From Gekko japonicus (taxonomy: Eukaryota): a DNA stretch of 64,000 bases. The stretch is from the NCBI RefSeq assembly GCF_001447785.1, contig NW_015174274.1:1501440-1565439 (forward strand), written 5' to 3'. The notes beneath the pieces were generated by a model that saw only the letters and a program-made list of their open reading frames with translations, was not told where the DNA came from and ran no database searches. Positions 4,601 through 62,964 of this stretch are shown piece by piece (position 1 is the first letter of the stretch; each line of letters starts with the position of its first letter). Position numbers and translations under genes: made by a program.

Positions 4601-7600
4601 ACATGTAAAAAGCAGCAGTAATTGGGGGACCTGTATGGGTTGCTTCCCTTAGCCCCAAGTTGCTTTAAGCCCTGGTAGAGTTGAAAGGCAGAGAATATGG
4701 ATATTTCCATTTTTCCTTAATGGGCTTAAAGCTGCTGGGAATGGGGAGTTCCATTTTTGACAGCATGGAAAGGAGCATTAAGTCCCCCCCTTCCCCCAGC
4801 ACTCTGTGGTCCCCATCCATATTATACTGTTCACCACGGCTTCTTTTCAGGGCCAAAACCACTTCTGAAGTTCTAGAATTCTAGCACCATTTATAGTTTG
4901 GATGATAACAAATCACCAGAAAGCCACTCCATGTGGCTGGCAGGTTGTCTTTGATTTAGTGGATTACAAATTGTGCAGCCCTGCTTGGGTAGTAGAAATA
5001 TTTTATTCTTTCATCACCTTTGGTGGGAATGCTGCAGAGATACATTTGGTTATGCATGCCAGGCATCACATTTAAATTAAGCAATATGTAGTCCCTCTGC
5101 TTGTGATGACCCACTGCTCATGTGCTCATCATAAAATTAAGGACCTGATATCTTCCAGTTAGTGATTGTAGGATTGTAGGTAATATGCTTAGCTGATTAT
5201 TTTGCCATAAATAAAATGGCCCCTTGGGTCATTTTGCTGGTGTGATGAATGAATTGAAATTTTATAGCAAATACCCTGAATGTGTTCATTGGCTAAAAGT
5301 AGTTCTTCAGTGAAGGCTGTTATTTGACAATAAGGGTATGTGAATATTCTTCCTTGTTTCCATTCCTTGAAGGAAGCCCTTCCCCAGAGCCAGGAAAATC
5401 CTGTGGAACACTTAATCCTTCAAAAGCTGCCAAATGGGAAAGCCTAGAATGTAACAAGAAACTTGGCTATATTTGTAAAAAAGGAAATGCCACTCTGAAT
5501 TCATTCACTATTCCTTCAGGTAAACAAGTGAATACAATTTAAAAACTTGTTGGAGGGGGGGAGAGAAGAATAAAAGGATTCTTACTTAAGCTCAGGTGCA
5601 TTTCTGAGGCCTTTCAAAACAATTGGTACAGATCTGGGCACAGATTTGGGGGGGGGTTGTTGTTGTTGTTCAGTCGCACAGTCGAGTCCGACTCTTCGTG
5701 ACCCCATGGACCAGATCACGCCAGGCCTTCCGGTCTTCCGCTGTCCTCTGAAGTTTGCTCAATTTCATGTTCATTGTATCGATGACACTGTCTAACCATC
5801 TCATCCTTTGCTGTCCCCGTCTTCTTTGACCTTCAATCTTTCCCAGCATCAGGGTCTTCTCCAGTGAGTGCTCCCTTCTCATTTGGTGGCCAAAGTATTT
5901 GAGCTTCAGTTTCATTTTCTGGCCTTCCAGGGAACAGTCAGGGTTGATTTCTTTTAGGATTGACTGATTTGATCTCCTTGCAGTCCAAGGCACTCTCAAG
6001 AGTCTTCTCCAGCAACATAGTTCAAAAGAATCTATTCTTCGACACTCGGCCTTCCTTACAGTCCAACTCTCGCAGCCATACATGACCACTGAGAATACCA
6101 TTGCTTTGACCATGCGGACTTTTGTTGGCAGGGTCATGTCTCTAGTTTTTATCATGCTGTTTAGGTTCACCATCGCTTTCCTCCCAAGGAGCAGGCGTCT
6201 TTTAATTGCACGGCTGATCACCATCTGCAGTGATCTTGGATCCCAGGAATGTGAAGTCTGTCACTAGAGGCTCTTGACGTCTTCTTCACTTTCTGCCATT
6301 AGAGTGGTATCGTCTGCATATCTGAGGTTGTTGATCTTTTCCCCAGCAATCTTAATTCCCGCATGTGCTTCATCCAGGCCAGCATTTCGCATGATGTACT
6401 CTGCATATATATTAAATAGGCAAGGTGACAATATACATCCTTGTTGTACTCCTTTTCCTATGCGAAACCAATCAGTTGTTCCATATCCGGTTCTAACTGT
6501 CGCTTCTTGATCCTTATACAGGTTTCTCAAGAGACATGTGAGGTGGTTTGGTACTTCCATCTCTTTAAGGACCTGCCATAGTTTGTTGTGATCCACACAG
6601 TCAAAGGCTTTAGCATAGTCAATGAAGCAGAAGTAGATGTTTTTCTGGTACTCTCTTGCTTTCTCCATAATCCAGCGAATGTTGGCAATTTGATCTCTAG
6701 TTCCTCTACCTCTTCGAAACCCAGCTTGTACTTCTGGCAGTTCTCTATCCACGTACTGAAGCCTAGCTTGTAGGATCCTGAGCATGACCTTGCTAGCATG
6801 TGATATGTGTGCAATTGTGCGATAGTTTGAACATTCCTTGGCATTGCCCTTCTTTGGGATTGGAATGTATACTGACCTTTTCCAATCCTGTGGCCACTGT
6901 TGCATTTTCCAAATTTCTGCTGTGGCCTGTCCATCTTGGGTGGCCCTCCACGGCATAGCCCACAGCCTCATCGAACCATGCAAGCCCCCTCGCCACGACA
7001 AGGCAGTGATCCATGGGGGGGGAAGGATAGACAATTCAGTTGCAAATGATGGCTATAGATAGTGCATTGAGAGCTGCTGATGTCTGGAAAACTGATACAG
7101 CAGTGCCTCAGGTATTAGAGATCATGGGGAATGTAGTCTTCCCAGGGGCATGTGATATTCCAGGGTACATGGTACTTGCTATGCTGCTGTGGCACCATTC
7201 CAGATGCTAAAGGCTTCATGTCTCTGGTCTTTTCTGCATGAACTTTTTTCCAGAGTTGCTGATGTCTTCTCTGGCAGTATGTGCCATTTTTTTGCCTCAT
7301 GGCACTATTGCTATCAACTGTAGCAGGTGTTTACAAAATTAGGGGTTGGGAGGGGTCTTCCTAGAGTTGCAAAGCAAGGTGGTGGCTTTGGTCTGACTGA
7401 TTCCTTAGCAGAAGGAAGACTGCTCACCAGTTTGTCGGTGGCCCCAGTATTCCTTTCGAGAATGGTTTCTGAAATGCTGAAATTCATTTCAGCTGAAGGG
7501 GAGCCCAAAGCACGTCAGCTGGCATATTGTCGGTAAGATGACTCTGCCTTTGTGCTGGTCTTTAATACCCTATTTCACTTTGAAAAGGAAACACTTGTAT

Positions 7601-10600: not shown

Positions 10601-13600
10601 TTGGCTGATGGACAGAAAGGAGAGAAAGAAGTCAGAAAAGTTTTTCAAGAGAAGGGAAAGTAGAATTATTAGAGGAGGGGAAATGTGATGCTCCCTGCAT
10701 AATCTCATGAGTCTTGTGCTTGTGGTATTATATTTATTGCAAGTATGGGGATTATGTTATAGACTGAGAGTGAGTGAGTTATGCAGTGGAGGTAGTTGTA
10801 CATAATTAAGGAACTGAAGGAAATGTGGAAGATGAGAGGTAGTGAGGCAGAATCTTAAAAGTCTGAATGTGATCTACAGGGTACCTGTGGATAGATTTAG
10901 TAAGGCTGTGCATGCAGTGAAATTCTATACAGGTGTAGAAAAGACATGGAATGCAGTAGTATAGAAATCAGCTTATCCAGAATCTCCTTTTCATTAAGAT
11001 ACATTTTTTTTGTCTCTTACCACAGCAAATACATGGTGGCAAAGTGTGTAGATAGTGTAGAGATGGGTACATTAATACAGATTTGTTCTGAAAGTGTGTC
11101 TCCTTAGGCCTTACAAGATGTGGCACATGTTTCTTTATAACCATGAGGTCCAAACACATGTTTTTATTTTAATGCAACTTGAGGCTCAGAGGATTTTGTA
11201 TTAGGCTGTATAATGTTCTGTCCTAGATGGCTAGATTCTGTTCTTTGCAGTGTATGTACTGCCGTGGATATTTATAACATGACAAAAAGGAGGGAGTAGA
11301 CAAAACATTCCTTTGAGACCAAACAGAAAAGCACTGTGTAAGGTACAGGAATGCAAGAGCAATGGAAAAAAACATTAAAAAGCAATATCTCTGTCATGAG
11401 GCGAATACTATAATGACAAATAGGTGCTTGATGCCAACTGATAGACGTTTTGCCTGAATTTTGAATTAGTCAGAGGAAGTGCTGAGTACAAGTCTTGGCA
11501 GTAGCCTCTCATCCTTAGTAAATCAGGTCACTGGAAACACCTGCTACCTTTTGGCATGTGTTTAGTAACTCAGCATCAATTGCCATTTTTGCAAGATGGG
11601 ATAAGGCAGTTAAGCACTGCCAAGCTGTTAACAACACAGTTCCTTTCTTTTACTATGTCAACATCCAGATATTGTACAAGGCTTTTGCTGTTGTTGTTGA
11701 AATCAGAAAACTACCAGTAGAAGACACTCCTTTGATATTGTAATGCTATGAACTAGGAATATAATGCAAACCACCCAAAATGCAGGGCCTACATACAGAG
11801 GATTTTCATAACCTCAGTGTAATCCCATTTCCCTGCCTGTCTTTCTCTACATGTAAGATATATGCTATTGAACATGTTAGCTCAGTAAAACTCACACAAG
11901 GCTGAATCCCTGATGAAGCATAAGTTAACAAACACAGTAAGTAAAACTAGTAGATGCCACCAATGTTCCCTCTAAGCTGTAAAGTTTTGTGAGCAAAAAT
12001 CCTACTTTGTGAGCTACTGGTATGAAAGTTGTGAGCGAGCAATTTGGCTACTGGAGTTAGGGGAAGGCTGGCTTTGGGTGGGGGAGGGACATCGGTGGGG
12101 TATAATACCATAGGCTCCACCCTTCAAAGCAGCCATTTTCTTCAGAGGAACTGATCTTTGTAGTCTGGAGACCAGTTTTAACTGCGAGAGATCTCCAGCC
12201 CTGCCTGCAGGTTGGCAGCCCAAGGAGCAATTGCTTAACGATCCTGCACATGCATAGAATATAGTCATAACCCAAGGAGCAATTGCTTGATCCTGCACAT
12301 GCATAGAATATAGTCATATTCTTTTCTATGTCCAATGGATAATAATTTTTCATGTCTTTTCATGCTAGAACCAAGTGATGAGTTGTGGATTGGATTGAAT
12401 GACCTCAGGATTCAAATGTACTTTGAATGGAGTGATGGGACCCCTGTCCTGTATACCAAATGGCTGCCCGGTGAGCCAACACATGATAGCAACAGGCAAG
12501 AAGACTGTGTAGTTATGAAAGGAAAGGTAAAATACTCTAGTTGCTTACCTCTAACTCTTTCTCCTGTAACAGGATATATTACTCAATGGCCATGACTGCT
12601 GTTTGGAAGTAGATTTCCGGTGATATCTTGCGAAAGATGGTATTCAACGGAAATGTTCTGCTGCTGTTGTGGTTCTCACATTATAAGATGTACTCTATAA
12701 ATTCAACGGAAACGTTCTGCTGTTTGTTGTGGTTCTCACATTATAAGATGTACTTGGGTTAGATCCAGACTAAATTTCCCAAAGGCAGAATGGAAAATTT
12801 CTCCCTCCCTATCCCAATGCAGTCCACTGAATTCTACAAAGTGCTGCTCCTGGAAGATAGGAATGACATGAGGGGGCTCTTCAGCAGAAAGGGGGAATCA
12901 CCAGAAATTCCCAATTAGCCTGGATCCAACCCCTTGAGTACAAACCCTCAGACAAGCCTAATCCTAGGTCCCCACCAAAATATCTACTTGTACTTTTGTG
13001 ATAGGCCCAGTTAGGCCCCCCCCCGAAATATTCAACAAAGTTCATAGCAACTGCACAGCAATTTACCAGTCAATACATTGCAAGTAGAACACCAATTGGC
13101 AGATAGCAGTGTAATGACTTGCCTGATAAACTCATCTAATCCACTGAGATGACCTCACAGGTCTCAAGAACTCATAGTATTCCCAGTCAGAGGAAACTGC
13201 ACTTCTTACCTCTTAGATTCTGAAGCTGTAGCCCAGCAGTTAGAAGCACTCCATGATGAACCAGGATACATGAAGTTAAGCTCCACTGAGGGATGGGTTC
13301 AAATCCCCCTAGCTAATATTATTTTCTGTACAATGAACAGTCAGCATGCAGTGACACCCATTCCCCTGGGCATATCTGCAGGGAAATACAAGCAGTTCAA
13401 CAGCATGATCCAAACAAATAGCTTTTATTTATTTTATTTTATTTATTTATATTTACATTTATATCCTGCCCTACCCCGCAGGCTCAGGGCGGCTAACGAG
13501 GGCACTGAGTGCCGGGTTAAAGCAATAACATATGATTTAAAAACAATAAATTACAATAAAATATCATAACAAATTACAACAAAATTTAAGCAAGAAGGGG

Positions 13601-16600
13601 AGATCTTAACCTCACATAGCTACGTCCTACGATCTTGTCCTCAGAGGCGTGTCCAAGCACCTCGCTCCACCCTGGGGCCAGGCAATCAGATGTTAGTATG
13701 CCAGGGCATAGGGGGTACAGGTGGAATAGCGGTGGCGGCGGCTTCTACTCAAAAGCCTGGCAGAAGAGCTTCGTCTTACAGGCCCTGCGGAACTGAGAAA
13801 GGTCCCGCAGGGCCCGGATCTCCTCCGGGAGCTCCTTCCACCAGGTAGGACCCGCCACCGAAAATGCCCTAGTCCTGGTCGCTGCCAATTTAACTTCTCT
13901 CGGGCCTGGAGTTTCCAGGAGATGACACCCTCACGACCGAAGTGCCCTTGGGGGAACATATGGAGAAAGGCGGTCCCTCAGGTAGGCTGGACCCTGGCCA
14001 TTGCTCTGATTCAGTAACCCTGTAAGCAAGAGGGCTGTGTTAGGAAACACATGTGTTTCCTATCCCCACTCTAACCTGGCCATATCTGATGCATCCCATA
14101 TTAATCCATAGTTATTGTACGGATATTCACCGGATCAATATGTCTGTTTTGACAGAAAAAACCCCCAAAGGAAACAAGAGAAAGATCAAATCAACATGCT
14201 GTAGATCCTGATCCCAGCTTTCAGTTTCATACAGGGGGGGGGGAAATCACATTTATTTCAAACTAATATGCTGTCCTTTTGACTAAACGACACATCAGGT
14301 GGCTTACAATAAAAGACAAGTTATAATGAAACGACAAATTAAAAGAGCAGTTTACATAACCCCCCCAGGAAATAAAGTAAAAGCAGGAACTGAACCATAT
14401 AGATATTAAAACAAATGAACAAAACAGAGCAATGGAATGAGGAGGAAAACTCAGTTACCAAGACTTGGACATTTAGACAGGTTTTGCCTGGTGAGTAAAC
14501 AATGACAGCAATTTGAACATGTTTCAGAAAGGAGTTCAGCTAATGACCTGCAAGTGTAGAAATAGCCATCTCTCTTCAGTATAATCTGCTCACTTCAGAA
14601 GAAATAAGAAACCAGAGAGGGGCTTCTAATGATGCTCTCAGATATTGGGCAGGTTTATATGGGAGACGCCGAATCTTTAGGTAAGCTGGTGTACATGGTA
14701 TGCAGGGAGAGGATTATAGATGACAGGGTCAGCAGTGAATTCCAGCTCTTTGAATTGTGCTTGAAAACAAACTGGAAGCCAATGCAGGTCTTTGAGTGCC
14801 ACTGGCAAAATGTACTCTTTATGACAAATCCATCCGGTTAATAGTTTGGCCTCTGCATTTTGGACCAGTGAAGCTTCAGATAACTTTTCAAAGGCAGCTT
14901 TAGGTACAAGAAATCTTATCTGAACATTACCAAGATATAGATGACTGAGTCAAGATTCATGAGGAAAACCATGAAAACCTGTAACAATGAAATCATCGTG
15001 GGACTGTTGTCTAATAAACTTCCTTCTTGTGTTCTATGCAGAATGGGTATTGGGCAGATCAACCTTGTGATGTCAAACTTGGATCCATTTGCAAAAGGAA
15101 ACCATTGAAAGAATCTCCAGGGGAACAAGAAATAGTTGAAGAAGGCTGCCGGAGAGTAAGTATTAGATTGGTAATATGAAGATCCCAGTTCCAGATGAAT
15201 ACACCAGAATCTAAACGATAACAGAAAAATGTACATATTTACTATATTCTTTGATACTCCAGCATTTCTACAAAGCCTGCCAGCTCTTATTAACCAAGAA
15301 ATTAAATCTTTTTGATGATCATCACTAGATCAGAGCAAAATTAACACAGGCGAATAAAGTCTAGATTAGCCATACCCATCTCTCATTGTCAACAGGCCTT
15401 CAAAGCCCTATTATATAATAGGGTTGCCAACTTCTTGTTGGGAAATTCCTGGATATCTGAGGATGGAACCTGGGTAAGGTTAGGGTTTAAAGGGGGGAGG
15501 GACCTCCGTGGGGTATAATGCCGTTGAGTCCACCTTCCAAAGCACCATTCCTCCAAGGGAACTGATCTGTATAGTTTGGAGATCAGTTGTAATTCCATGA
15601 GATCTCTGGGCTCCACCTGGAGGCTGACAATCCTGCTATACCATGAATGGAAACCTATACAAACTATATTTGTTTTAACAATAGAATTCAAGCTGACAGT
15701 GAAGAAAAATGAGGTGGCAGTTTAATTGGCTGGATAAGAAAGCAGAGGAGGGGCTTTAATACATCCTGCGTGTTTAGATCCTTATAAAATTATACCCTTA
15801 ATGTAACAGATATTCCTGCAGGAAAGTGCCTCTTTACAAATTTGGCATATTTTATTTAATTTTTATTTTTTAATTATTTTTATTTTATTTTTCAGATTTC
15901 TACCCCACCCTCCCAGCCAAGGCCAGCTTGGCTTACACAAACAGCACATAAGTAGCCTTACCTAGTGGTTGCAGGCAATGCCTTCTCTAAGCTGTGGAGA
16001 ATCACGAACAAAAATTCTACTTTGTGAGCTTCTGGCCTTAAAGCTGTGAGTGAGCGATTTGGCTGCTGCATAAAATTAGTTTGCTCTGGAGCCCTCCTTC
16101 CTGAGCTAAGATGAAAATGTGTGAGCCAGGTGCTAAAAAACTGTGAGCTGGCTCACACTGACTCAGCTTAGCGGGAACACTGGTTGCAGGGCATGTAGCC
16201 CCCTCCCCATACACACACCTCTGGCAAAACCCCATTCTTTTTTTTTTATAGAATTTATTTATGTTTTTTCCAACAAAAAAGAAATCAAAATACTTTCCGT
16301 TTATACATATCGTTTTTCGGAGTGATCATTATACATTTTTTTCAAACCACTTATATACTTTAAACCATCTTTTCTTAAAAACATTATCGTCTCTTCCTGC
16401 TAGTATCATATTTAATCTGTCCATTTCTGCTATTTCGAATATTTTTTCCATTATTTCTTCTTTTTTGGGTAGTATGTCTGATTTCCATTTTTTTGCTATG
16501 AGAATTCTGCTTATCGTGAGAATATATAACATAATACATCTATCAACTCTATTTGTTTTATCTGGAAGCATATTAAGCAGGTAACTTTCAGGGATAAGCT

Positions 16601-19600
16601 GCAGCTCTATTTCTGTGATATCTTTTATCAATTTTTTTTACCATTTTCCAAAAATTCGTTATTTTATCACACCTCCACCATATATGGTAAAACGTTGAAG
16701 ACAGCATATAGCTGAATTTCTTTCTGTGTCTGCCCAGGCTGTGTTCCTTTCATTGTTAATCTATTATGTTTGTGATTCTTTTATTAATATTTATGTGCCT
16801 TAAAACATTTTCTTTATATGGTATAGCTCTTACTAATTTTGCCGTTTCCCACATTTTTTTCCATTCTTGATTTTTTATTGTATAGCTTTATATAGCTTTT
16901 GTATTTGTTTATCTGCCGAGGATACCAGATCTTGTCTATTTCTGACATTGAGTCTTTAAATTTTGTTTTTTTGTCCTTAGCGAATCTTGACTGTAATATA
17001 GTTCAAAGACATGGCTTTTACTGTTACATGGTTGGAAATGTATTTGCAACATTTGCTGAAGCAAATGAAACATGCCAAAAGAATGGAGCTCATCTAACTG
17101 CAGTTAAGGATAGGTAGGAACACCCATCCCCAAATGTGTTTTTTCCCATTCCCAGGGTAAGAACTCTTGTTACATTGTTTTTGTTTGTCCCCCCCCCCAA
17201 GATCTGGTGGAAAGACGGAAGTACCTCATGAGTACTGCTCTGGGCCAATTGCAGAGTTTCATTTCTGCTTTGAATATTTGGTTTCAAAAGCTTGGCTAGC
17301 AACAAGTAACTATTAAACAGGGCCACTGGTGACATAAACCTTAAGTATTGTTAATACCAATGGTGGAGGTAGAATTTATAGAAGAAGGGGATTGATGGGA
17401 GGAGGGGCATGTGACGGGAGTATTATATGAGTGCCAGTTCCAAATAATTGTTTTAAATTGTATACAGAGCCTTCATACACACAACTTGTACAGATTTTAA
17501 CTTCGAGTGCACAACCTATTATCCTGCATTTTTCAGAGTACCAAATCATGTATATTTTTCAGGGTACTAGGTAACCAGTGCTGCCGGATTCCTAAGCCTA
17601 CTGACTTTAATGCTACTAGAAGGGTGTAACTCTGTATAGGATGGAAAAGCCTACATAGGGACAATGTGATGATGTGCAGATGCACCCATGCATTGATTTT
17701 AACAATAGGCTTTTCTGAATTTTGTGTAGTTCTGTCAGAGCTGTCCTTGAAAGGGCAGCTCTGGAAAGACCTCTCTCAGCCCTACCTACCTCATAGGGTG
17801 TCTGTTGTGGGGAGGGAAAGGGAAAGGAGTTTGTAAGCTGCTCTGAGACTCCAAGTGAAGGGCAGGGTATAAATCCAATCTCCTTCTCCTCCTCTTCTTC
17901 TCCTCATTTTACTCCCGTTACTTCCTGTTTCTTTGGGATTTTTTCCTGTTCCACATGTGTTTTGCTCCCTCACGTGGGCAATTCGATATCATGCAGATTT
18001 ATTTCCAGCATAAAAACCTGCAGTTAAATCTGCGGGGAGATATGCTTCAAAAAAAGCTGTGTAGTATTGAATCAACCACTTGAGGGAGCAAACACATGTG
18101 AAACAGGAAAAAAGCCCTGAAGAAACAGGAACTTAGCAGAGAACAATTCCACAAAAGCAGTTGTTCTGCCCTCAGTCTCCCATTTTTTCCAGTTGTACTG
18201 CTTAATTTCCCACTATTTGCTGTGCGGCCGCATTTTGACCCGCATCCCCCACCCCATCCCCCCCCCCCGATTTCCTCCACGTCTTCTTGATCCTAAAAAA
18301 TAAGGATCAAGAAGACAGGGAGGAAATGGGGGGGGAGATGCGGGTAAAAATGCGGCAGCACAGCAAATAGTGGGAAATTAAGCAGTTCAACCGGGGGAGA
18401 CCGAGGGTGGAACAACTGCTTTTGTGGAATCGGTCAGAGAGTAAAATGAGAACGTGGAAAAGCCCAGTTTTAAGAGCTCTGAAAAGACCTCATGCTGCTT
18501 CAATTTCCAAGCCTTTTAGAGCACTAGAACATGGAAAATGAATACGTGCATTGTCTCAGCAACATCACCTTCCTTTTGTTGAAGATGGGTTTATTTACTG
18601 TTTATCCATATACAATTTATGAGTTTATGCTGCTGCCTCAATAGCTTTTTTTGATATTTTTCTTACAAAATTAGTCCTAGAAATTACATATGGTGAAATT
18701 TCAGTCCTGCCATTTATTCTTATTTTCCTGCAGATATGAACAAGCCTATCTGACCAGCTTGATTGGGCTTAAGCCTGAAAGCCATTTCTGGATTGGTCTT
18801 ACAGACATAGAAGAAAAAGGAACATTCAAATGGACCAGTGGAGAAGCTGTCGAATTCACTCACTGGAATTCTGAAATGCCTGGCATGTTCAAATACTAAA
18901 CTCATCGGGGTAGGAAAATTACACAGGAGTAAAGTAGCACCTTCAAGATGCCAACATTTATTTCTGCATGGAAGTACACTTGGACTTGCAAAAACCTATG
19001 TTGAAATAAATTTCATCAGTCATTATGGTGCTGCTTTATTTCTGTGTAAATCATTTCTAAGGAAATGATTATGCAGTAAAATGCTTGGATTTGGGAATGA
19101 ATGGCAAAAGAAAAAAATCATTACAATATTTAGCACTCAGTGAATTCTAAAAAGCTCCCTTTTTTAACAGAAAAAAGAAAAACTAATTTCAGGCAGACAC
19201 CACCCCCCCCCCTTGGAAAATAATGCTGAGGAATGATTTTTCCAAAGTGATTTGGCTAAATTGTCAGTTTCTGTGGCTAGCAAATTGCTTTCTTGGATTT
19301 CTGGAAATGCTCATTCTAGTGCTTTTGAAAACCTCTTGCTCTAGAGAGAGACAGTTTGGTGTAGTGGTTAAGAGCGTGGACACCGAACCCTGAGCCTGCT
19401 GAAATATAAATTTCCCATGAAGTCATATTTTCTCTAGAAACTTTTAAACACAATAATAAAAATGGCCTTAGTGTTCATAAATGTTTCAGAGAGGTCCAAG
19501 GTCACTAGCAAACTTCCAAGGGAGAGTTGGGTTAGACCCTTGGCCTCTCAGATCTTAGTCTCATCCTCCAACCATGCTCACATAGTGTTTCACCTGGTTA

Positions 19601-22600
19601 AATTTGTTTTACTTTAAAATTAAAAGTATGACACCATTCTATTTGTTGCTGGAAAAAATATTAAATTATTTTTAAACTACAGACAACAGCTTGTACTAAA
19701 TATCACAGGAACTTGCCTAGATTTAAAATTGTATGTCACCATTCTATTTGTTGCTGGAAAAAAAATTAAATTATTTTAAAAATACAGACAACAGCTTGTA
19801 CTAAATAATCCATATCACAGGAACTTGCCTAGATTTAAAATCCCCCAAAACAATGCAACAAAGGACAAGACTGGTGTCTGCAGTGGGCATCTCAGGCACT
19901 TCCTGATGCCCACAGCTGCTATTTCCTCTAGGGGAACAGATCGTTCGTAATTCCTGGAGATTGTCAGGTTTTACCTGGAAGTTGGGAATGCTAGGTTTAT
20001 CTGTTCCCCTCTATCACAGTCTTCCGCCAGCGGGTTAAGACTTTTTCGTTTTGTTTGGCATTCCCTTTGTCTTCCGCCAGCAGATTAAGACTTTTTTGTT
20101 TTGTTTGGCATTCCCTTCCTGACCCTCCTTCCTGTTTATGTTTCAATTGTTTTTTGGGTATATCTGTTGTTTGTAAAGTTGGTTTTTAATGTCTTTTTAA
20201 CTGTTCACTGCCTTGAACTGAGTGGGAAGGCAGAATAAAAATGTTTTAAATTAATAGTAGACTAACATAACTACCCATGGAAATGATTGCTATGATGCCT
20301 GGCAGTTGCTGGAAAAAGTTATGGATTTCTTACCACATTTAATGTCTGCCTACTATGCAACATACATGTAATTGATTTGAATAGGGAAGATCTTGTTTTG
20401 ACCATATAGCTGTAGTTGGACATGAATGGCGGGTATATACAGTGTGAACGAAGTAAAAGAGTGGCTGTATTGACAAAAGAATATATTAGTTTTATTCCAC
20501 CACAAATGAAATAGATCTGGGTAAAACTGCACAAGTGCACAAGGAGCTAATCCATAAATATAAAGAATTTCAGGGATCATCTGGCTGTTTTTTGGAAACG
20601 GTGCTTGTATCTTTCTGGCATTTTTAAACTGAAAGGAAATGCTATGTTTGTTTGATGCCACCATCAGTTTTGGGGGAGAAAAGCTGTCTTCTGCTTTTTT
20701 CCAATAAAAGTTTAGAATTACTACACCCATGACTAGAGATTTGGTTGGCATCATTTGTGAAAAATGTATAAGGTGTATTCAGAAATAATCCTGGTGGTTA
20801 TGCTGGTAATCATAACAACAGTTTGAAAGTAGCAGGATGATATGTCTGTCCCTTTAGATGATGCAGTTTTGTCTATGTTTGTCATGTGTTCCAAAGGAAG
20901 TAAGCCAGGCTGTGTGGCCATGAGAACTGGAATTGCAGGTGGATTGTGGGACCTTTTGAAATGTGAGACCAAGGCAAAGTTTCTCTGCAAAAAGTGGGCT
21001 GAAGGAGTGACTCCTCCACCTCCTCCAGTGACGACTCCTGCTCCCAAATGCCCCGATGACTGGCATTCAAGTTATCAGAGTAACATCTGCCACAAAGTAC
21101 GTCTTCTGATTTTGGAATCTGCGCAAGCTTTGTTGAATAGTTGTTTTATGTACATACGTTGATTTTTATAATCTGCCCCATCAGAAAGAGTTGGGGTGGA
21201 TTATGTATACAAAGACACATTTTAAAAATGCTCCACTAACATGATGGGGAAAAACTCTACCTATTTTCAGAGTAATAAAACATGACAAAGTGTCCTTTCT
21301 CTCCCCAACTCCCAACAACCTTCTGAAAAACAATCAGAATCACAGGCTTGTTGCCATCAGTGGACATTGCAAAGTTATATACGGGCAGCCATTGACCAAG
21401 TCAATTGCCAAGCCAAGAATATTTGATGAACACTCTCCCTACTAAAGGAATGCCTTTAATGCTATATTTCAGTGTTGAATACCTGATTTGTTGCATTTGA
21501 GTTTCAGAGGGAACCTGCTTTGGCTCTATATTCCCCTTTCTCCATTTGTATTTCCCGTCTTCCTGTCTCTACTAGGGAATTCTGTTTTGATAGAACATTT
21601 TTATTGCTAGGGTCTCATTGCTTTTCCCTAAAGGTGCCCTCTTTTCAGGACAGTCCTCAAATGCAATCTTTCCAATGCAAGTGCTTAGATAAAGATAGGG
21701 ATAGAAAATATCAGCAAGACTTTGTGGGGAGTCCAGATTGTGTGACTACAATCTGTAGTCTTATCTACTGTTTATGGAAGTTGCCTATCTTCAGGCCAGG
21801 AAACCTTTCAGGGTGCTGGGAGTGTCATTTCCTCATCCTGAAGCCCTGACAGTGTGTGTCTTTCCTCTTGCAAGCCTGCATCCTTGGGTTTTGTTGCTAC
21901 CATTTCTTGATGCTTCTGCAAGTGGATCCTTCATAGATGGCCCTGATCCTTTCTTGTACTTTATTGCTTACATTTGTCTGTGATTTGTTAAGCTTTAAGG
22001 AGTCATTCCTGCTCAGTCAAGTTCTGAAGCAGAACCTGTATCTTCGTAAATGTACTCTCAAGAACAAAAACTGACCATCCATAAAACAGCTGGCTCACAA
22101 TTTCTTGCAGAGCAGCGTGCTTTCAGCTGAACATTCGGTAATGTCTTCTTGAGGGCACCCAGGGACCTTCAAATTTGGTGGCATGGATTGCTGCATACCC
22201 ACAATAGAATGGGAATCACTTCTTCCAGTGTGATCCCACATCACTTTGAGAACATGAGTAAGCTGCAACCATGTGGCTTGTGCCAATGATTTGGTTTCAT
22301 CCTGCACAACCACCATTCTTCCTGTCTATGGGCAGACCAACTAATTAGTATAGCATTCCTCATTATTAACTCCAGGTAGAACTCTCACCTCTTTAATCCT
22401 GCTGTTGATATGATTGGCCTGTGCTTTTTTGATAAATCTGTAGATTAAGGTGGTGCCAATGAGAGGCAGCCACTGAGAATGCCTTTCTATACTCCCTTTC
22501 TATAGACCCTTTCTATCAGTATTTTGAGGACAAAGGTAAGCACAAGAGGAAACGCTGGGAAAGTTTTAGTGAAGCATGAAGGTCCCATGATGCTTCAGAA

Positions 22601-25600
22601 ATGATAGGGTTCATCTCATCTGTCCAAGAAATGCTATATTTGCAGTTCCAGCAGTGAATGGGTGCCAGACAGAACAACTGAGACAATGCCATGTGTGGGA
22701 TAACAGACCACAACTTTATTGCTTACAGCTTTAGAGGTTTGGTTTAACACAGGGCAATGAAACCAAAGGCATTGGGCAACCTGTATGCTGCCTGATGTAA
22801 AACCCCATCACTCAGCCCACTTGCAAAGGAGAAGAACCTGGGATGGCAGTGTTATGGGAACACTTGGGTGCAGGCCACTGTGTGATTCCCCTGCCACCTG
22901 GGGGTGAGGAGAGGCCAGCAGCCCCTGAGCTAGGCATGCTTCCTTAACCCATGCCCCCATCCTCACCTAGGGNNNNNNNNNNNNNNNNNNNNNNNNNNNN
23001 NNNNNNNNNNNNNNNNNNNNNNNNNNNNNNNNNNNNNNNNNNNNNNNNNNNNNNNNNNNNNNNNNNNNNNNNNNNNNNNNNNNNNNNNNNNNNNNNNNNN
23101 NNNNNNNNNNNNNNNNNNNNNNNNNNNNNNNNNNNNNNNNNNNNNNNNNNNNNNNNNCATCAGTTGAAGATTGCTTCTGGCCCTGCAAACCATCCGCCAT
23201 GGGTCACAAATGCCCCCCCCCCGGTAAGTCGGGGACTTATTCTTCTCATAGCTTTCCCGCATTGCTGCAATAATGGATAATATACTGGATAACTCAGCCC
23301 ATTTTAAACAATAACTATTGATTTCTAACATTTATACTCTACATAGAGTTGTCATCAAATTGTACCCAATATGACATTTTAAGCATAATGTGGAGGTTGC
23401 TGCTTAGGTGAAAAATTTGAAGAATTTTGAGTGAAGCTTTAATCAGACTAGCAAAACTTTTCTTGGAGGCTTTGTACATTCCTGAATCCTGCTTTCTAAC
23501 TCAGCTGAACCTGGTTTGCCTGCAGTACTTTCCCTATTGAACCAATTTAGGAACAGGATAATCTCTAAACTGTGCCATGCTTACTTTGTCCCAGCCATCT
23601 TTTATTGCATAACCTTGCTGTGGAGTAATATTTCTCCACTTTATTCTGTGTACGGTTTATAAAGTCTAATTGTCAAACTCTGTATTGTCATTAGGCTTAT
23701 GCAAGGCGAGACAAGAAATCATGGGCTGAGGCCCAGAGTTTCTGTAGAGTCATTGGAGGTGATTTGGTCACCATCGGTAGTGCAAGAGAACAGACCGGGC
23801 TGTGGACCTACTTGTCGTGAGTACATGGTACTATCATAAGTGTTTCAAAGCCTCCAAAGGAAAAGAAACTTGCTACTTAGCACCACAGGAAGAGGCTGGT
23901 TTTGTTGAAACCATATGTTAGCTGTAGCAAAGTTACTATATCTTGTGGCCCAGCAGGGGCAGAATGTCAACTTACAAGGAAATTTCCTGGTGGGTTGCTG
24001 TCCTAGCAGGCCACAGGTGGCCAGGAGAAAGCAGAGCCAAACCTTAGTAACTTTGCCCGGCGCCCAGGAAGCACTTGGGTTCTTCACCTGCAGTGATGAT
24101 GCATCAACTCACTGAGTGCTTCCTCCTACACTGCTGCAATTTTGTGGGAGAAAGCTATGGATGAGTCAGTGGCCACTGTTGGTATTGCTGATTATGGAAC
24201 ATAATGGTTGAATCTACATTTCAATTTTTAAATCAGTTTCGTGCTGCATTTGCATTTTTAAATCAGTTTTGTGCTGCTGTGACACTGTCTTTCTCTATGT
24301 TTGACGGTGTCACAGCAGCACGAAACTGATTTTAAAATGCAAATTTAGATTCGACCAATGTGTGCAGCTCTGGCTTGTAGTATCACAAGGGCCAATCAGG
24401 TTGGCTTGCTCCACGGCCATTTTAACTTCTTGCTCTACCCCTGTGCCTGGGCTAATGTTGGACAGCATGTGACGTTGTTGGAAACTAATTAGGTTTGTGT
24501 CTGGTCAGTGCCTGGAAAGTAGACTTCCTGGGAATCCTAAGTAAGCTGCCTTGAGTTCCATGGTGAAAGAAAGGGGCAGATCTAAGTGTAATAAACTGCA
24601 TTGATTCACACAGCACTGGTTGATTCTAGCAACTGAGATATGAAATCAGTCTAAAAGAAAAACTAGATACTGGTGAAAACTCATATAGTTCTTGGGCTTT
24701 GAGGAAACGGCTACAGGGAGGGACGTAACTTAGCAATGTTCCCTCTAAGTTGTGGAGTCTTCTGAGCAAAAATTCTACTTTGTGAGCTACTGGCATTAAA
24801 ATTGTGAGTGAGCGATTTAGCTACTGCATAAATCAGTTTGCTCTGGAGCCATCATTCCTGAGCTAAGACAAAAATGTGTGAGCTGGGGGCTAAAAAAACT
24901 GTGCGCTAGCTCACACTAACTCAGCTTAGAGGGAACTCTGGATGGAAGCCTCATTTCTAAGATAAAAGCCATCAGGCTTATGTCACAGACAATGGCAATA
25001 TGAGAGCAAGGTTTGAGTAGGATTGCGCCTTTGAGACCAAGAAGATCTCCAGGGCATAAGCTGTTTGAGAACCAAGGTTCTCCTATCTGACCAAGAGGAC
25101 TTGGCTGTGTTAGTCTGTTGCTGCAAAATAGTAAAAAGCCCAGTAACAACTTTAAGACTAATAAACTTTATTGTAGCATTGTAGTAATGATTTTATATGG
25201 TTTTAACTTGTTTTATGTGTTGGCTTATGCCTACCTGTGAGCCGCTCTGAGCCCGCGTTGCGGGGAGGGTGGGCTATAAATTGAATTTATAAATAAATAA
25301 ATAAATAAATAAGCTTTCAAGAAACACAGCTCTCTTTGTCAGATGCATGGAGGGTATGAAGAAACTGGCCAGAGATATATAGGTGGTAAGGGGAGGGGGG
25401 GGAGGATGCAGAAAGTGCCATGTAAATGCAAACCAGTTGCAAAAGTCATGAAGAAGGTATAATACTTTATATTAAATGTAAATATTAAAGACGCTCCCCA
25501 TGGATATACAAGAATGTATTCATACAGACAAACCCCAGGAACCATGGCTAGGAATATTCTTCCTACTACCCCAAATCCACAAACCAGTAACCCAGGATAC

Positions 25601-28600
25601 CCCATTGTTTCAAGAACTGGCACAATCACGGTAGGAGCCTCAGGATATATGGACTCTATTCTCAGGCCCTATGCCATCAGCACACCCAGCTATCTATGAA
25701 ACACTACAGACTTTTTCAGGAAAGTACAGTCCATTGACAACCGCCTGGACAATACCATCCTAGCAACTTTGGATGTTGAGGCTCTGTATACCAACATCCC
25801 ACATGCAGATGGTCTGCAAGCCATCAGGAATATCATCCGAGACAAAACCATAGCACACATTGCCTCTGAACTTTGCCACTTCATGCTTACTCACAATTAC
25901 TTCAAATTTGGTGACAATCTATATCTACAGGTAAATGGCACAGCTATGGGCACATGCATGGCACCACAGTATGCAAACATATTCATGGCAAAGCAACGCT
26001 TCCTCAGCTTCCATCCACTAAAACCATTCCTGTACTTAAGGTTTTTGGATGACATCTTCAACATTTGGACCCATGGGAAGTAAGCCCTTGAGAGATTTCA
26101 CCAGGACTTCAACAACTTTCACCCACCATCAACCTGAGCCTGGACCACTCTACACAATAGGTACACTTTCTGGACAACACTGTACAACTACATGGTGGAA
26201 AGAGATAAACACCACCTTATATTGGAAACCCACCAACTGATATGAGTACATGCCTCAACATACTCTCTACATGCCTCAAGTTACCACCCAAAACATACCA
26301 CTCGGTCGATTGTCTATAGCCAAGCTTTATGTTACAATTTTATCTGCTCCAATGCTCTTGATCAGGACTCTCACTTAAGGCATTTGCAACAAACATTTTT
26401 GGGACTACAGTATCCACCAAATGAGGGGAGGAAACAAATTGATACGGCTAGACTAGTACCCAGAAACATCCTACTCCAGGCCAAACCAAAAAGAGCCAAG
26501 AACAGAACACCACTGGTTGTCCCCTATAGTGGTCCAGCTCAAACCAGTCCAACGTATCATCAGTGATCTACAGCCCATCCTAGAAAATGATGCCTCTCTC
26601 TCACAAGCCCTGGGTGGAAGACCTCTCCTTGCCTACAGACAGCCCCCCCCAACCTCAAATGACTTTTCACTATCATGAACCATCTAACAGATTCACCAAC
26701 ACAGGAACCAGACCATGCAACATACCCAGATGCCAACTCTGCCCACATATCTACTCAGAAAGTATGATTACAGGACCCAATGGAATCTACTACACAATCT
26801 CTGGCTCTTACAGCTGCTCATCCTCCAATGTGATATATGCTCTCATGTGCCAACAATGCCTCTCTGCTCTGTACATAGGACAAACCAGCCAACCTCTATG
26901 CAAAAGAATAAATGGACACAAATCTGACATAAAAAATGGCAATATCCAGAAACCAGTGGGAGAACACTTCAATCTACCAGGACATTCTGTCAAGGACTTA
27001 AAGGTCACCATAGTTCAACAGAAACATTTCAAAACCAAAATCCAACCGGAAGCTGCTGAACTGGAATTTATATGTAAGACTTGGATTGAATAGAGACTTT
27101 GGATGGTTATCTCCAGGGGTCATTTCCTGTAGGAGCGCACAGGAGCAGAGCTCCAGCAGTAAAGAGCCCAGGGGGCAAGCACATGCAACAAGCCCCACCC
27201 CCTGCTCCCAGTAGCCCTCAGTCAGAGCAAGAAGCAGCCAGGTAAGCTGCAGAGCCCCCCCAGCCCCCCCAGTCCAAAACAGTCCAATAAAGTTTGTTAG
27301 TCTTAAAGGTGCCACTGGGCCTTTTACCATATTTGACCAAGGGAGCTTTGACTCTTGATGATACCCTGGAAATCCTGTTGGTCTCTAAGGTGCTATTGGA
27401 CTTGCATCTAGCTCTTTTGCTGCAGGCCAGCACAGCTGCCCACCTGAAACTAAAGGCAGTATGGGCTTATTAATATCCTATTTATATTCCATTCATATTG
27501 TGACAATATTTATCAGTCAGATAAAAGTATTTAAAGGCTATTTTCTTGTGCAGAGTTTTAAGGTTGAGAGGTGAAATTTAACTTTATAGAAAGACTTGTG
27601 TGTTTACCTGCTGTTTGGTTTGTGTGATATTTTAGGGACAGTGGATACAGTGGTACACATTTCTGGATAGGCTTAAATTACCTCAGCCCAGATGATGGAT
27701 TTGCATGGAGCGATGGATCTCCAGTAAGTACAGCTACTTCCCCCCCCTCCCTGAATTCTTGTTCTTTTCTCTTGATTACTTGCATGCCTGGGTCTAGTGG
27801 GTGAGGGAGCTAAACTGAAAAATAAGGTGTCTCCCCCACAACAAAATCTTGCCTTTTGAAAAAGACTGAATGTCTTGTTCAGTACAGAATCAGCAGCATC
27901 AACATAATTTTTAAAAAAGATGAACACGTCAGAATTCCCATTTTGTGACTGGAATAACTTGTATCAGTCCATTAGCCCTCATCTAGTCTGTTGTGATGCC
28001 TGTGGATATTAATAGCCACCAGGAAATTATCCTGTTGAAGCCCCATTAAAATATATGAACGCTGTTTAGGAGCACAGTAGTAACCGATGCAGCTACAATG
28101 ATGGCTACTTTTGTTCTAGAACTGTTGCTCAGAGAGTAGACCCCAGGAGCTGTGGAAGGGAACAACTTGTCACATTGCACAAATGGCTTGGATACTGAGC
28201 CTAGCTTCTACTGTTCTCTGTTGCAAAAGTGGTCCTCTTGGGCTAGGTGCTTCTGTTTAGTGCAATACCAATAACTTTCAATGAGCCCCAAACACCTGGT
28301 GCTGGACCATCTCCACAAAGGACAAAGAGCTTTACAAGCAGAAGGAAGGCATAGGATCCAGCAGTGTTATGGTCTTTATGATGAGTTGCTGGTTTTGTGC
28401 AATGGCTCACAGGACTGGATTGAAAGGTTGCAGATTGCTTTCATTGTGATTTTTTACAGGCTTATGTCTCACGTAAACTTGATTTAATTTACCAAATGGA
28501 CTGGCTTGTGTACAACAAAAGCAATGCTTTTCTTTATAAATAAATGATTTACTAACTTTATTTGTATGTTAGCTCGGGTATATAAACTGGGGATATGGAG

Positions 28601-37600: not shown

Positions 37601-40600
37601 CTGATCTCCAGACTACAGAGATCAGTTCCCTTGGAGAAAATGGCAGCTTCAAAGGGCAAACTCTACGGTATACCATAAAATCTAGGTGAAATCTCCCCCT
37701 CTCAATTCTCTCCTCCACTGGTGCTATTCCCAAACATCCAGGAATTTCCTAACTTGGAGTTGGCAACCATAAAATCTATTCCTGTCTATGTATGGTATTG
37801 GAAAGAGCTTGCAGTATACAATGCTCTTAATGAGATATTCCTGCTTAGTATTGTTGCTTCCTGTAAGGAAACATGAGATTTGCAGTTTCCTGTGTTTCCC
37901 GGCCCAATTCTTTGAAGCAATACCATAGGATTGCCTACTGTATGTCGAGAAATTCCTGGAGATTTGGGAGAGGAACCTGGGAAGGGTGGGTTTTAGGAAG
38001 AGGAATAAACTCAGTGGGGTATAATGCCATACATTCTATCCTCCAAAGCAGCCATTTCCTGAAATGGAACTGATCGCTGTAGTCAAATAATTCTGGGAGA
38101 TCTTCAGGCCCCACCTGGAGGCTGGGAACCTTAAGTAAGAAGCTTAGGCAACAACAGATCCATGCACCCTGGCAGAAAATTATCTTGAGTATGCTCATGA
38201 GCATCCCTGTCTTCCTGATAGAGGACTAGAAAGCCTCCGTTGCCTCCAGAGAGCCTTCCTTGCAACTATAATCCCCGCTCCATTGGCAAAGGCAGAGGCA
38301 TGGACCAGCAAAGATGGCTGAAGGCAAGCTTGGTTGAACTTTTTCTGGGAATTCTCTAAGAAACCTGGTATTTAAAAACACCATTGTAGTTTGAATGGAG
38401 GTGAGGGGAATCACTACTTTCAAAATAGAGTATTTTATCTGATATTTGTCTGAAAAGTGCTCCCCGCCCACCTTGAATAATATTAACCGTGTTGAAAGAA
38501 ACAATATAATATTTAATTTGTCTTTTAGTCGGATGGATGGAAGCCCCGTGGACTATTTAGCTTGGGCACCCCATGAACCAAACTTTGCAAACAATGATGA
38601 AAATTGTGTGGTCATGTACAGAAGAACAGGTAGGCAACTTGACAATCACCAATACTTTCTGCTTTGTTGTTTGGTTAAAATAGGGTGAATTATTCCTGAA
38701 TATAATGCTTAGATTAACCATTTTAATATATATGAAATGCAGCAGTATTTTTTATGTCAAATGACTCACAGTGTATGACTTGTTTTCTCATGGTCAGGAC
38801 TATGGAATGATATAAACTGTGGTTACCCACAGCCTTACATATGTGAGAGACACAACAGTTCAATTAATGCAACGGCTGTTCCCACTACACCTTCCATTCC
38901 AGGAGGATGTCCAGAATCATGGCTTTTGTTTGAAAATCAGGTATAGTGGTAATTTTCTCTCCCCCACCCCCAAGCGGCTCTGGGAAGCCATGGCTGCAGT
39001 CCAAAATTCACTTGCTAGGAAGTCAATGGAGCTTACTGCTGAGTAAACATGCTTAGAATTGCATTACATGAGCCGTAAACATAATTGTGGTGTTGTGATG
39101 CTGGTCTTCTATTTGCCTTTCTGTATATATAACACATTTTAACATTAATTAAAGAAACATTTGTAAGTTTTGTTGCCTTCCATTTGCTCATAACCAACCT
39201 GACAATTAAACTTCAGGCCTTATAAGCTATGTAATGTCCTTTTCTTCTTCATCCAGTATGGAAAATTGTTGGGGGAAGCAGGGGAGTAAAATCCAAGTGG
39301 AGCACTAATAGCTGTCCTGTAGAGGAAAAATCAGACCGGAAAAAAATATATGATTTGTGGAGCCCAGGATGACTGGGTGATCCATGTTGGCTTGTGGGCT
39401 AAAAGCACATTCCGCACGCTTTCAGAGCCAAGGCACTGGTGAAGACGACTTCTCCCCACTCAGCCAAATGATCCCCTGTAGCTTGGAGCTGAAAGCATGC
39501 CACCAATCATATGGTTAGAGGAGGAGTGTGTAAGGTGTGCTTTCAACCTAGAGTTGCCAACTCTGGGTTGGGAAATACTTGGAGAATTTTTTGGGGGGGT
39601 GGAACTGAAGGAATGTGGGGTTTGGAGAGGAGAGGGACCTCAGCAGGTTTGAATACCATAAAGTTCACCCTCCAAAGCAGCCATTTTCTCCAGGGGAACT
39701 GATCTGTATCATCTGGAGTGCGGTTGTAATAGTGGGAGATCTCCAGGCCAATGTGTCTATTTCAGCCCCAAGCCACCACTGATTAGCTGGCCGGTGGCCT
39801 GCACAACATCAGACTATGGACCAGTGGGGGAAGGGGGAATGGTCACCTGCTTTTTAGTGTAATGTATGACAGAATCACAGTGGCAGGTTCACTGACTGGA
39901 TCTTGTAGTCAAAGGATATTATTTATATTCAGGCCTGTAAGAGAGTGTGTGTATCCATTAGGGCTGAGAGCTCTGGGTTAGGAATTGCCTGGAGATTTTG
40001 GGGGTGAAGCCCAAGGAGGGTTTGGGGAGGAGAGGAACTTCAACAGGGCATACTACCATAGAGTCCACCTTCCAAACTGGCCATTTTCTCCAGGCGAACT
40101 GATCTCTGTCACCTGGAGATCAGTTGTAATAGAGGGAGATCTCCAGCCACCACCTGGGGGCTGGCAACTCTAGTGTCCATCCTTGTGACAATCCCTTGGA
40201 GAAGTGAACTGCTCACAATAAGCAGGCCTACCAGTTTTCAGTCTGGTAACCGGACACATATTTTAAAATTTTATAATCTCCCAGTGAAGCAGGAATTCTC
40301 ATAGGTTTCCTCACACTCATTTCCCTTTGCGGGGCCTGGGTTGAAGAAGTATGTTGCCAAAAGGAAGGTGGAGTTACAATTAACCCATTTTCCATTTTAG
40401 TGGGAATTTAGCAGGTTGTGTTCAGATTGCAAGATGAGAAGGCTAACAATAGGCTTTGTTTAGTAACTCTTAATTTCAGTTCATTCTTTCTTTTTTATTT
40501 TCCCATGCCCTGCCCTCTATAATTTATCAGCATCCTTTCAGAGCCACACATTTAAATAAAATACTTTGTCCAGTATTTCTCTCTTTCCAGGGATAATCTT

Positions 40601-43600: not shown

Positions 43601-46600
43601 CTCCACCCTCCTCAGGGTCTATCCCCATATCTCCAGGAATTTCCTAACCAAGAGTTAGCAACCATACTTGCAGATCCAAGTCTGGGTGTAGTGGTTAAAA
43701 GTGGTGGACTCTAATCTGGAGAACTGGATTTGATTTCCCACTCCTTCTTGGGTCAGTCACAGTTCTCCCAAAGCTGTTATCTCAAGAGCAGTTCTCTCAG
43801 AGCTCTCTCAGCCTCACCAACCTCACAGGGTGTCTTTTGTGGGGCGAGGAAGGGAAGGAGATTGTAAGCTGCTCTTGGACTCTGGGTGAAGGACAGGGTA
43901 TAAATCCAACTCTTCCTCCTTCTCTTCTTCCTCCTCCTCCTCTTCTTCTCCCTTCTTCCTTCTTCTTCTGGGCACTGAGCACAGTGGGGTGAGGGCAGAG
44001 TATGGAACAAGAAACACAAGTTTTTGGTTCCAGGCTCAGCAGACTGGGCCAGAGCGAGCAGACAAGAACTATACTGATTGTAGCACATGTAAAGGCCAAA
44101 CTTGATTTGGAAGCTTGACTTTTATTGTCCTATTGTATTAGGAGGATTGCCTGCCTTATTGAACAGAGTCATCTTTGAGTGTACAGGGACAGAACACTTG
44201 AGTCTGTAGCCCTGCATGGAACAACACAAGTTCTGAAGTTCCTGCTTCTATCTCTGACAGCTCTGGAGTTACTCCTGTATAGGTAAAAGGGAAGAGAGGG
44301 GTCTTCCCTAGCTATGTATGATTCTTGTTTTTTTTTTCTTTATAGGAAGATTGTATTGCAATGAAAACCAAACCTCTTAAAGCAGTGGGGACATGGGATG
44401 ATTTTAACTGTGGGTCTAAGAAAGGCTACATATGTCAAACAAGCACAGGTAAGTACTCCCACCAGTTGGATAACCACTTTCCATCCATTAAAAGAAAATT
44501 AATTTATCCAAAACTTGATTAAATTTCTACTATCTCCTGTATGCTTCCATTAAAGCAAGTGGTTTATGAGCATATAGAATATATTTAGAACAGTGGTTCT
44601 CCAATTTTGCCACAGCAGGTTTATATTTTTTTTATTTCCCCCAAAGTGTCATTTCCATTCACGTCCGTGTTATGTTGTAGGGGGGAAAAGGCAAATTTTG
44701 CTCTAGAGACCCAAATAATGGCAAAAAAGCTGTCCACCTGGTGATGAAATTGCCATAATCACTCTCTTCCAATGAACATTTATCTGGTAGAGCCTTTGTA
44801 TGCCTCCAACCTTGAATCTTTTTCTTTTCACTTGCAATTTATGAAATGAATTCATCTTTTTTGGCAAGAGCATTTCATTGAACTTAATTTCCACCTTCTC
44901 AACCCGAAAAGTAATAAACTTTAGGAAGTTGTGGTAGCTACAAGCAGAGAGAGCTTCAAGGAGGGATTTGATAAACATATGGAGCAGAGATTCATCAATG
45001 GCTATTAGCTACAACGTATAGATGGAACACTATGACGGAATCTGCATTTGTCTTTCCCACCGGTGTCCCAGCCTTCTGACTCGGTCTTCAAAAAAGTTGT
45101 CTACATTTGGTGTCATTTTCACACCTGAACAGTGCTCGCATACTTTCGCACATCCACATATGTTTATCATCCTTTGGGGCGGCTCCACTGTCATTGCACC
45201 TCTGCACTGCTTTAAAAGAATCTTCTCCAAACAACATTCAAACAAGCATAGAGAAAGATGGCGTCACAGCATCATGAAAATGATTTTAAAATGCAAATGC
45301 AGATACAGCCTATGTCTGGGGCAGTGATACTTGGTATTCTTGGTGCTTGGGGGGCAACAGTGGGAGGGCTTCTTGAATTCTGGCCCCACTAATGGACCAC
45401 CTGATGGCACCTGCATTTTGGCCACTATGTGACAGAGTGTTGGACTGGGTGGGCCATTGGCCTGGTCCAACATGGTTTCTCTTATGTTCTCTTATGTTTT
45501 GTAGACCCCAAATCCTCTGTTGTTCCATCATCCACACCAGTACATTTATTCCATTTCCGTAATAGTAGCTACTTCTTCAGTGAAACCAAAATGATGTGGA
45601 ATGATGCCCAGAAAAACTGTGAACAACAAGACTATGATCTTGCCAGTATTTTAGATCCTTTTATCAACTCAGTCCTTTGGCTACGGATGTTGAAATATGA
45701 TGGGCCTGTATGGATTGGTCTGAACAGCAATATGGTAAGTAGGCTGCACATCTGCCCATAAAGTAGCATATATAGAATTTTCTGTTTCTGTTTACACAAG
45801 TGTTTTTATATTCTTCACTAATCTCAGGCATTCAAGATAATGTGATTCAACTGGTGTAATGATTTTAATGTTTAGTTGCATTTAGATACATGGATAAAAG
45901 GAGACAGTAGTATACCTTTTAACTGACTAAATCTATTACATTGCCTTATTTCATGCTATGATGATAATGTCCACAAGGTATTTTAACTATGATCTGCTAC
46001 CTCCTAGTGGACAGCAGCAAAATCAGAATGAATCTGCTCGAACATACAGTTAAGTGTGAAGTTCCAGGGACATTACTGCAGGAAACATCTATTCATGATA
46101 GCACTTTCTCACAACCAAGATGACACAAGATATTGCTTTTTGGGATGGGCAACCGCTGGATATTCTGGTCTATAAACCTAGACCTGATGATTTGTAAACA
46201 GCCCGATAGTCTGAGGTATTCTTGCTAGGCTTGACCAGAATATTGGCCCATCTACCTGACTATTTTGACAAACAACAGCTGGCTAGCATAGAATAAAAAG
46301 GGCCTTTTCCAACACATGCTGCCTAAAGGTGGTTCAACAGGACATGCCCAGGATTGAACCAGGGGCCTTCTTTTTGCAAACAATGTACTCTTCTACTGAG
46401 CCTCCTAATTTTATGGAACTTTTTGTTAGGAAATCAGCCGCAGCACTAAAATGATCTATCATGTGAAAGATCTGTGTACATTTCAAGTTTCTGAAAGATT
46501 CATTGTCATTTGTTGTTGTTGTTCAGTTGCACAGTCGAGTCCGACGCTTCGCAGTCCCGTGGACCACATCACGCCAGGCCCTCCTGTCTTCCATCGTGCT

Positions 46601-62528: not shown

Positions 62529-62964
62529 NNNNNNNNNNNNNNNNNNNNNNNNNNNNNNNNNNNNNNNNNNNNNNNNNNNNNNNNNNNNNNNNNNNNNNNN
62601 NNNNNNNNNNNNNNNNNNNNNNNNNNNNNNNNNNNNNNNNNNNNNNNNNNNNNNNNNNNNNNNNNNNNNNNNNNNNNNNNNNNNNNNNNNNNNNNNNNNN
62701 NNNNNNNNNNNNNNNNNNNNNNNNNNNNNNNNNNNNNNNNNNNNNNNNNNNNNNNNNNNNNNNNNNNNNNNNNNNNNNNNNNNNNNNNNNNNNNNNNNNN
62801 NNNNNNNNNNNNNNNNNNNNNNNNNNNNNNNNNNNNNNNNNNNNNNNNNNNNNNNNNNNNNNNNNNNNNNNNNNNNNNNNNNNNNNNNNNNNNNNNNNNN
62901 NNNNNNNNNNNNNNNNNNNNNNNNNNNNNNNNNNNNNNNNNNNNNNNNNNNNNNNNNNNNNNNN
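62529..62964. other. Assembly gap within a GC-rich repetitive region
   Basis: Run of N. Confidence 0.99.

Follow-up and report, generated by a model that had tools for sequence, protein, structure and literature searches.

An antisense L1 fragment abuts a shortened exon 10 of MRC1 in Gekko japonicus sequence and is predicted to disrupt splicing of the mannose receptor

MRC1 and its copy in the window

The mannose receptor MRC1/CD206 is used as a macrophage marker, and CTLD4-5 are its main sugar-binding domains. The vertebrate receptor has a CysR-FNII-8 CTLD-TM layout (human 5XTS) and is encoded by a series of 30 exons (PMC4229073, available part). The same part of that source reports three MRC1-like genes in lizards and an intact frame in every MRC1-like gene surveyed, and the paralogues could thus buffer a loss of MRC1. 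A true orthologue (MRC1L-A), as opposed to an MRC1L-B paralogue, would be expected between SLC39A12 and STAM, and the flanking genes fall beyond the ends of the window described next.

The domain layout and the exon series are both shared by the gene described here, which occupies a stretch of 64,000 nucleotides of Gekko japonicus DNA (hereafter the window) with its exons 4-30 on the + strand. The 27 exons match the G. japonicus RefSeq protein XP_015279238.1 at 1234 of 1239 residues, and the five mismatches are codons split by introns. Pfam finds CysR, fn2 (FNII) and eight Lectin_C stretches (the CTLDs) in that protein, its best match is MRC1, and the closest solved structure in a PDB search is human MRC1 (E 4.7e-297). 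A search with exon 12 returned MRC1 proteins, led by that of Paroedura picta, in a cluster containing seven gecko proteins. An alignment with 58 other full-length MRC1 proteins was used for comparison. The claim of the preliminary description that all 26 exons besides exon 10 are open was borne out by translation and a splice-site check, exons 11-30 being open as far as the natural stop. Relative to vertebrate MRC1, the window gene is without the exon 10 acceptor and the GW dipeptide that follows it, and has Arg in place of Trp872 and Ser in place of Arg596.

The window contains N gaps at 22973-23157 (in intron 12, at a distance of 5.9 kb from where the L1 meets exon 10, see below) and at 62529-62964. 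There are none between 17004 and 22973, and none anywhere upstream. Two-copy tandem repeats with a 93-94% match lie at 12219-12318 (49 bp), 12642-12754 (60 bp) and 20019-20117 (50 bp), and may be natural duplications or traces of gap closing. Broken ORF pieces at 25591-27090 in intron 13 resemble a Penelope-type retroelement, an assignment presumed from an RT-like YMG/RFLDD stretch and a GIY-YIG-like end. Several related antisense LINE-like fragments in introns (5968-6264, 46467-49132 and 59234-59548) are taken to be of RTE/BovB type.

The junction of exon 9, L1 sequence and exon 10

Exon 9 ends in phase 0 (GCRR|GTAAGT), and homology to exon 10 resumes at about 17004-17005, directly against antisense L1 ORF2 sequence, both as previously described (Table 1). 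Human MRC1 reads GCRK-GWKKHHFYCY at this junction. The alignment agreed that the GW dipeptide is missing: the W is present in 54/58 other full-length proteins (the rest being three gaps and one I, in a protein model without most of exons 9-10), the preceding G in 53/58 and the following K in 50/58, homologues continuing GWKRH. Among related species, the W is kept in 6/6 other geckos, including the congeneric G. kuhli. The restart of exon 10 had been read as QRHGFYCY; its position holds, but the Q is probably a hybrid codon because K stands there in 50/58 homologues, and about seven exon bases, rather than six, would then have been lost.

Table 1. Features of the MRC1 locus, in window coordinates
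Feature	Position	Strand	Remarks
MRC1 exon 9	15042..15155	+	phase 0 end; main donor AGA|GTAAGT, donor score 4.7, above 4/25 other donors
GTNNGT tandem donor, second GT splicing after 15159 (+4 nt)	15156..15165	+	score -0.4, below all 25 other donors
5'-truncated L1 fragment, decayed (C-terminal part of ORF2 and a short 3' UTR)	16238..17004	-	relatives, polyA end, collinear pieces
A10 tail	16238-16247	-	sequence
AATAAA	16254-16259	-	sequence
Open 102-codon L1 ORF2 C-terminus	16332..16637	-	87 relatives, best E 7.5e-14
Damaged ORF2 part	16633..16996	-	collinear pieces with 3 frame changes, a gap of ~22 codons near 16884 and two stops within 16699-16797
L1-derived AGs ending at 16895, 16928 and 16952, all three weak and in frame with donor 15155	16894..16952	+	scores 4.0, 1.4, 2.0
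Strong L1-derived acceptor (AG ending at 16980) with its pyrimidine tract and CTGAC branch point (A at 16945), also L1-derived	16942..16980	+	score 10.0
Premature stop TAG of predicted 15155->16980 product	16999..17001	+	112 nt before next junction; its AG is the RefSeq model's acceptor
Exon 10 remnant (start of CTLD3)	17005..17113	+	donor TAG|GTAGGA intact
Exon 11	18734..18882	+	donor GC (CTG|GCATGT); private changes T561S, S568T
Exon 12 (CTLD3 end, linker and first CTLD4 strands)	20897..21096	+	private changes R596S, Y660H
CGG codon, Arg872 (CTLD5)	38530..38532	+	Trp in 58/58 homologues

No AG|G(G/C)NTGG motif is found in intron 9 on either strand, and no second exon 10 in the window. Two genomic ORFs of a relative (P0097 and P0100) have an intact intron end followed by GWK, and the P0097 intron end reaches a best score of 28 in the window against a self-score of 105, which rejects displacement of the lost intron end elsewhere in the window. 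The unmatched intron end and the empty intron 9 together imply that the acceptor and about seven exon bases are absent rather than displaced. Two MRC1 models of Varanus komodoensis (P0091 and P0028) are likewise broken around exons 9-10, perhaps through a fault of annotation or assembly in the corresponding region.

The sequence upstream of exon 10 had been identified as antisense L1 ORF2, and a full HMMER scan agreed, finding the 87 relatives of the 102-aa piece at E<=0.001; a word-index search had recovered no L1 relatives among 63 candidates. RVT_1 was present in three of eight scanned relatives, in two of the three above the Pfam cut-off, and collinear pieces homologous to the ORF2 C-terminus of RT-bearing proteins run from 16996 to 16335. 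The element is taken to be an L1 from its ORF2-end motif and polyA end, no Pfam family naming the clade. It has a polyA signal and tail at its 3' end and is truncated at its 5' end, its homology ending near 16996-17004; on the + strand it is T-rich (46% T). Taken one by one, several of the short ORF2 pieces do not score above shuffled sequence (95% of shuffle maxima = 23.4), and the case for the damaged part is carried by the order of the pieces. A scrambled arrangement was ruled out by that collinear order, and no piece in a displaced position scored better than shuffled sequence. No target-site duplication of 7-20 bp was found, the longest word common to 16171-16250 and 16986-17070 being 6 nt and lying away from the ends, and the window holds no second copy of this L1 for comparison. 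The fragment therefore lacks both the target-site duplication and the undecayed ORF2 of a canonical fresh L1 insertion. Its decay (three frameshifts and two stops) and the missing duplication are better fitted by a deletion that joined an older intronic L1 to exon 10.

Predicted splicing and the origin of the lesion

Splice sites were scored with a matrix built from only 25 introns, all the other introns of the same gene, and on this scale the L1-derived AG at 16980 is the best within 150 nt of exon 10, as the preliminary description had proposed, and scores above 20/25 true acceptors. It lies in the top 0.5% of AGs in the window and has 15/17 pyrimidines, and a branch point (CTGAC) precedes it by 35 nt. 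Splicing from 15155 to 16980 gives RILTVI followed by the stop at 16999-17001, and splicing from 15155 to the AG at 17001 shifts the frame, both as claimed earlier. The predicted 15155->16980 product comprises 512 aa of 1451 residues. The rule for nonsense-mediated decay (NMD) applies where the stop of the main transcript is followed by a junction over 50-55 nt downstream; in this predicted transcript the distance is 112 nt, beyond that limit.

In-frame AGs had been reported only at 16928 and 16952; both are indeed weak, but a third, at 16895, had been overlooked. The AGs at 16895, 16928 and 16952 would add 36, 25 and 17 foreign residues, respectively, in place of GW. Also overlooked was the +4 tandem donor, which restores the frame: it is in frame with acceptors 16920, 16980 and 17001 and with the exon 12 acceptor at 20896. 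The tandem pattern recurs in 12/25 other donors of the gene. Fifteen donor-acceptor routes with an acceptor score above 1 are open, including that from the +4 donor to 16980. If the main donor skips exon 10, or exons 10-11, the reading frame likewise runs into a stop. Skipping of exons 10-12 (exon 9->13) is in frame yet removes the first strands of CTLD4, and is not favoured as a clean deletion of CTLD3. The near-invariant Trp at the start of CTLD3 would be lost in every in-frame route.

The RefSeq model XP_015279238.1 uses the +4 donor with 17001 and so reads VIQ for GWK. At exon 11 it picks a very weak donor (score -3.1, giving GIK) instead of the GC donor, which suggests that its junctions around exons 9-11 were fitted to homologues and not read from RNA. 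The G. japonicus form of the junction was absent from the 36 matches among 92 candidates, shorter proteins over residues 460-600, and the window exon 10 ORF was absent from the protein collection searched; both are weak blanks. The model hides the break behind a weak junction and is not to be trusted there.

Further odd changes had gone unremarked, namely W872R, R596S (Arg in 56/58 homologues) and the GC donor of exon 11. W872R may represent another lesion, a polymorphism or an erroneous base. The exon 11 donor (18880-18888) matches the consensus worse than the exon 26 donor (53136-53144, GC at 53138), whose consensus-like TAG|GCAAGT makes a GC-AG intron likely there; a GC-AG junction at exon 11 gives GSK, homologues having GRK. 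Conversion of GT donors to GC is common in mammals (PMC2490688, available part). W872R and R596S suggest relaxed selection. With junction residues 507-509 and 596 left out, G. japonicus has 8 changes downstream of the lesion, versus 6 in G. kuhli, at sites unchanged across five outgroup geckos (p=0.79), and 19 versus 23 majority-polarised changes. Private changes do cluster weakly in exons 10-12, which hold 5/11 of them in 113/928 invariant sites (one-sided p=0.0065; p=0.17-0.87 for the same test in six other geckos), but this block was chosen partly after seeing the changes, and a scan over any window gives p=0.17, the majority-polarised test p=0.12 and a Fisher test against G. kuhli p=0.26. 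A long-dead unitary pseudogene is ruled out by the open exons 11-30 and the lack of a rate excess over G. kuhli, and any loss is for these reasons recent or partial. If neutral change is assumed to run at 1-3e-9 per site per year, the intact 3.7-kb coding region bounds full loss at ~2-6 million years.

The best explanation for these observations, in which about even confidence is placed, is that the lesion is real and makes a null or strongly hypomorphic allele. The join, the lost GW, the identity and decay of the L1, the ranking of the splice sites and the stop can be read directly in the sequence. The history and consequences would be as follows. A decayed antisense L1 piece came to be joined directly to exon 10, which lacks its acceptor and its two opening codons; the 5' part of the L1, the intron end and about seven exon bases were probably removed by a deletion, either when the L1 inserted or afterwards. 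Exon definition would then select the L1-derived acceptor at 16980, splicing from 15155 would stop the protein at ~512/1451 residues, most messages would likely enter NMD, and a small in-frame leak might pass through the +4 donor. The event would be recent, a few million years at most, or the allele would be carried by only some animals. Truncation with NMD is favoured because 16980 far outscores the in-frame AGs (1.4-4.0) and the +4 donor scores below every other donor. Of the earlier proposal of a recent transposon-induced null or truncating allele, the truncating reading is thus the best supported part, while a fresh L1 insertion that replaced the acceptor is less likely. Counting against a null are the 26 intact exons and their splice sites, the lack of any excess over G. 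kuhli and the open, full-length RefSeq model; the L1 also looks old where the gene looks freshly hit, so that two events are needed. The null remains a prediction from one sequence.

The need for two events would disappear if a single fresh L1 insertion from a defective source copy, accompanied by a target-site deletion, had made the lesion in one step. The splicing outcome would be the same and only the history would differ, and the probability of this history, which is quite unlikely, forms part of that given to the null. In its favour are the pure A10 tail with AATAAA and the open 102-codon ORF2 end, and target-site deletion at L1 insertion leaves no duplication, as observed; however, the source would have had to carry three frameshifts, a 22-codon gap and two stops and yet be mobilised. 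The missing duplication also speaks for an assembly error, in which a repeat-associated mis-join or collapse would have lost the start of the exon, the end of the intron and the 5' end of the L1, the animal itself having a normal MRC1. L1 copies are typical assembly break points, the scaffold is gapped, and within 5 kb on either side of the join lie three tandem repeats (49-60 bp, two copies each) of the sort that gap closing can leave behind; the W kept in all other geckos also agrees with such an error. An error is nevertheless somewhat unlikely, as no gap lies near the join and an error at exon 10 would leave W872R, R596S and the cluster in exons 10-12 unexplained. G. japonicus has been assembled both as a draft from short reads (contig N50 ~30 kb) and from long reads (PMC10776941 and PMC4673495, available parts).

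The lesion could also be real but tolerated. Splicing in frame, either into a weak L1 acceptor or from the +4 donor to one of 16980, 17001 and exon 12, would then yield a membrane-bound receptor that contains residues from the L1 and whose CTLD3 is crippled or missing, the rest remaining under selection. In its favour are the fifteen open routes, including that into the strong 16980 acceptor, the VIQ of the RefSeq model, and the private changes in exons 10-12 with the GC donor in the same block; an old L1 within an otherwise intact gene fits long-term tolerance. It is nonetheless judged unlikely: the clustering is weak in the further tests given above, the +4 donor is very weak, the RefSeq junctions are seemingly homologue-fitted, the exon 9->13 skip costs the first CTLD4 strands, and W872R falls outside the block. 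More doubtful still is a specific form, in which G. japonicus as a species lost the start of exon 10 and the normally noisy +4 donor with the L1-derived acceptor became the working junction of a receptor carrying L1-encoded residues and a decaying CTLD3. Were it true, splicing noise would have rescued an innate-immune receptor broken by a transposable element, with exons 10-12 drifting and the rest conserved.

Comparison with known splice disruptions and soluble receptors

The lesion would work like known L1-linked splice disruptions. A literature search returned nothing on an MRC1 lesion in G. japonicus, the papers listed on loss of MRC1 did not concern geckos, and the main text of the 2023 genome paper contains neither 'mannose' nor 'MRC1'. 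Should the lesion prove real and fixed, a gecko studied for tail regeneration, in which MRC1/CD206 would be read as a macrophage marker, would naturally have lost or remodelled its main macrophage mannose receptor. Such a lesion would also tell if the receptor can do without CTLD3 and if a gene can be rescued by a weak tandem donor; an artefact would call for no more than a corrected annotation.

The exon 9 donor belongs with the GYNNGY tandem 5' splice sites, having GTAAGT and a second GT at +5. Minor forms of such sites, where unregulated, mostly stay under 5% in human and mouse (PMC4267661, available part). The +4 form is normally frameshifting noise in that account, whereas in gecko exon 9 it restores the frame. 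As in antisense exonisation of transposable elements generally, the T-rich antisense strand supplies a branch point, a pyrimidine tract and an AG. A comparable case is that of L1 insertions at MET exon 14, which alter splicing (PMC12934576, available part), as is predicted in the gecko. Unlike that case, as far as it is described there, the gecko lesion is found in a reptile reference sequence, involves a decayed L1 and is accompanied by loss of host DNA; its predicted result is a frameshift rather than in-frame skipping.

Soluble mannose receptor is made by proteolytic shedding (PMC4229073, available part), and the predicted 512-aa gecko product would likewise be without a membrane anchor. 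In contrast to the shed receptor, it would comprise only CysR-FNII-CTLD1-2, would therefore be without CTLD4-5, and would come from a message predicted to be a target of NMD.
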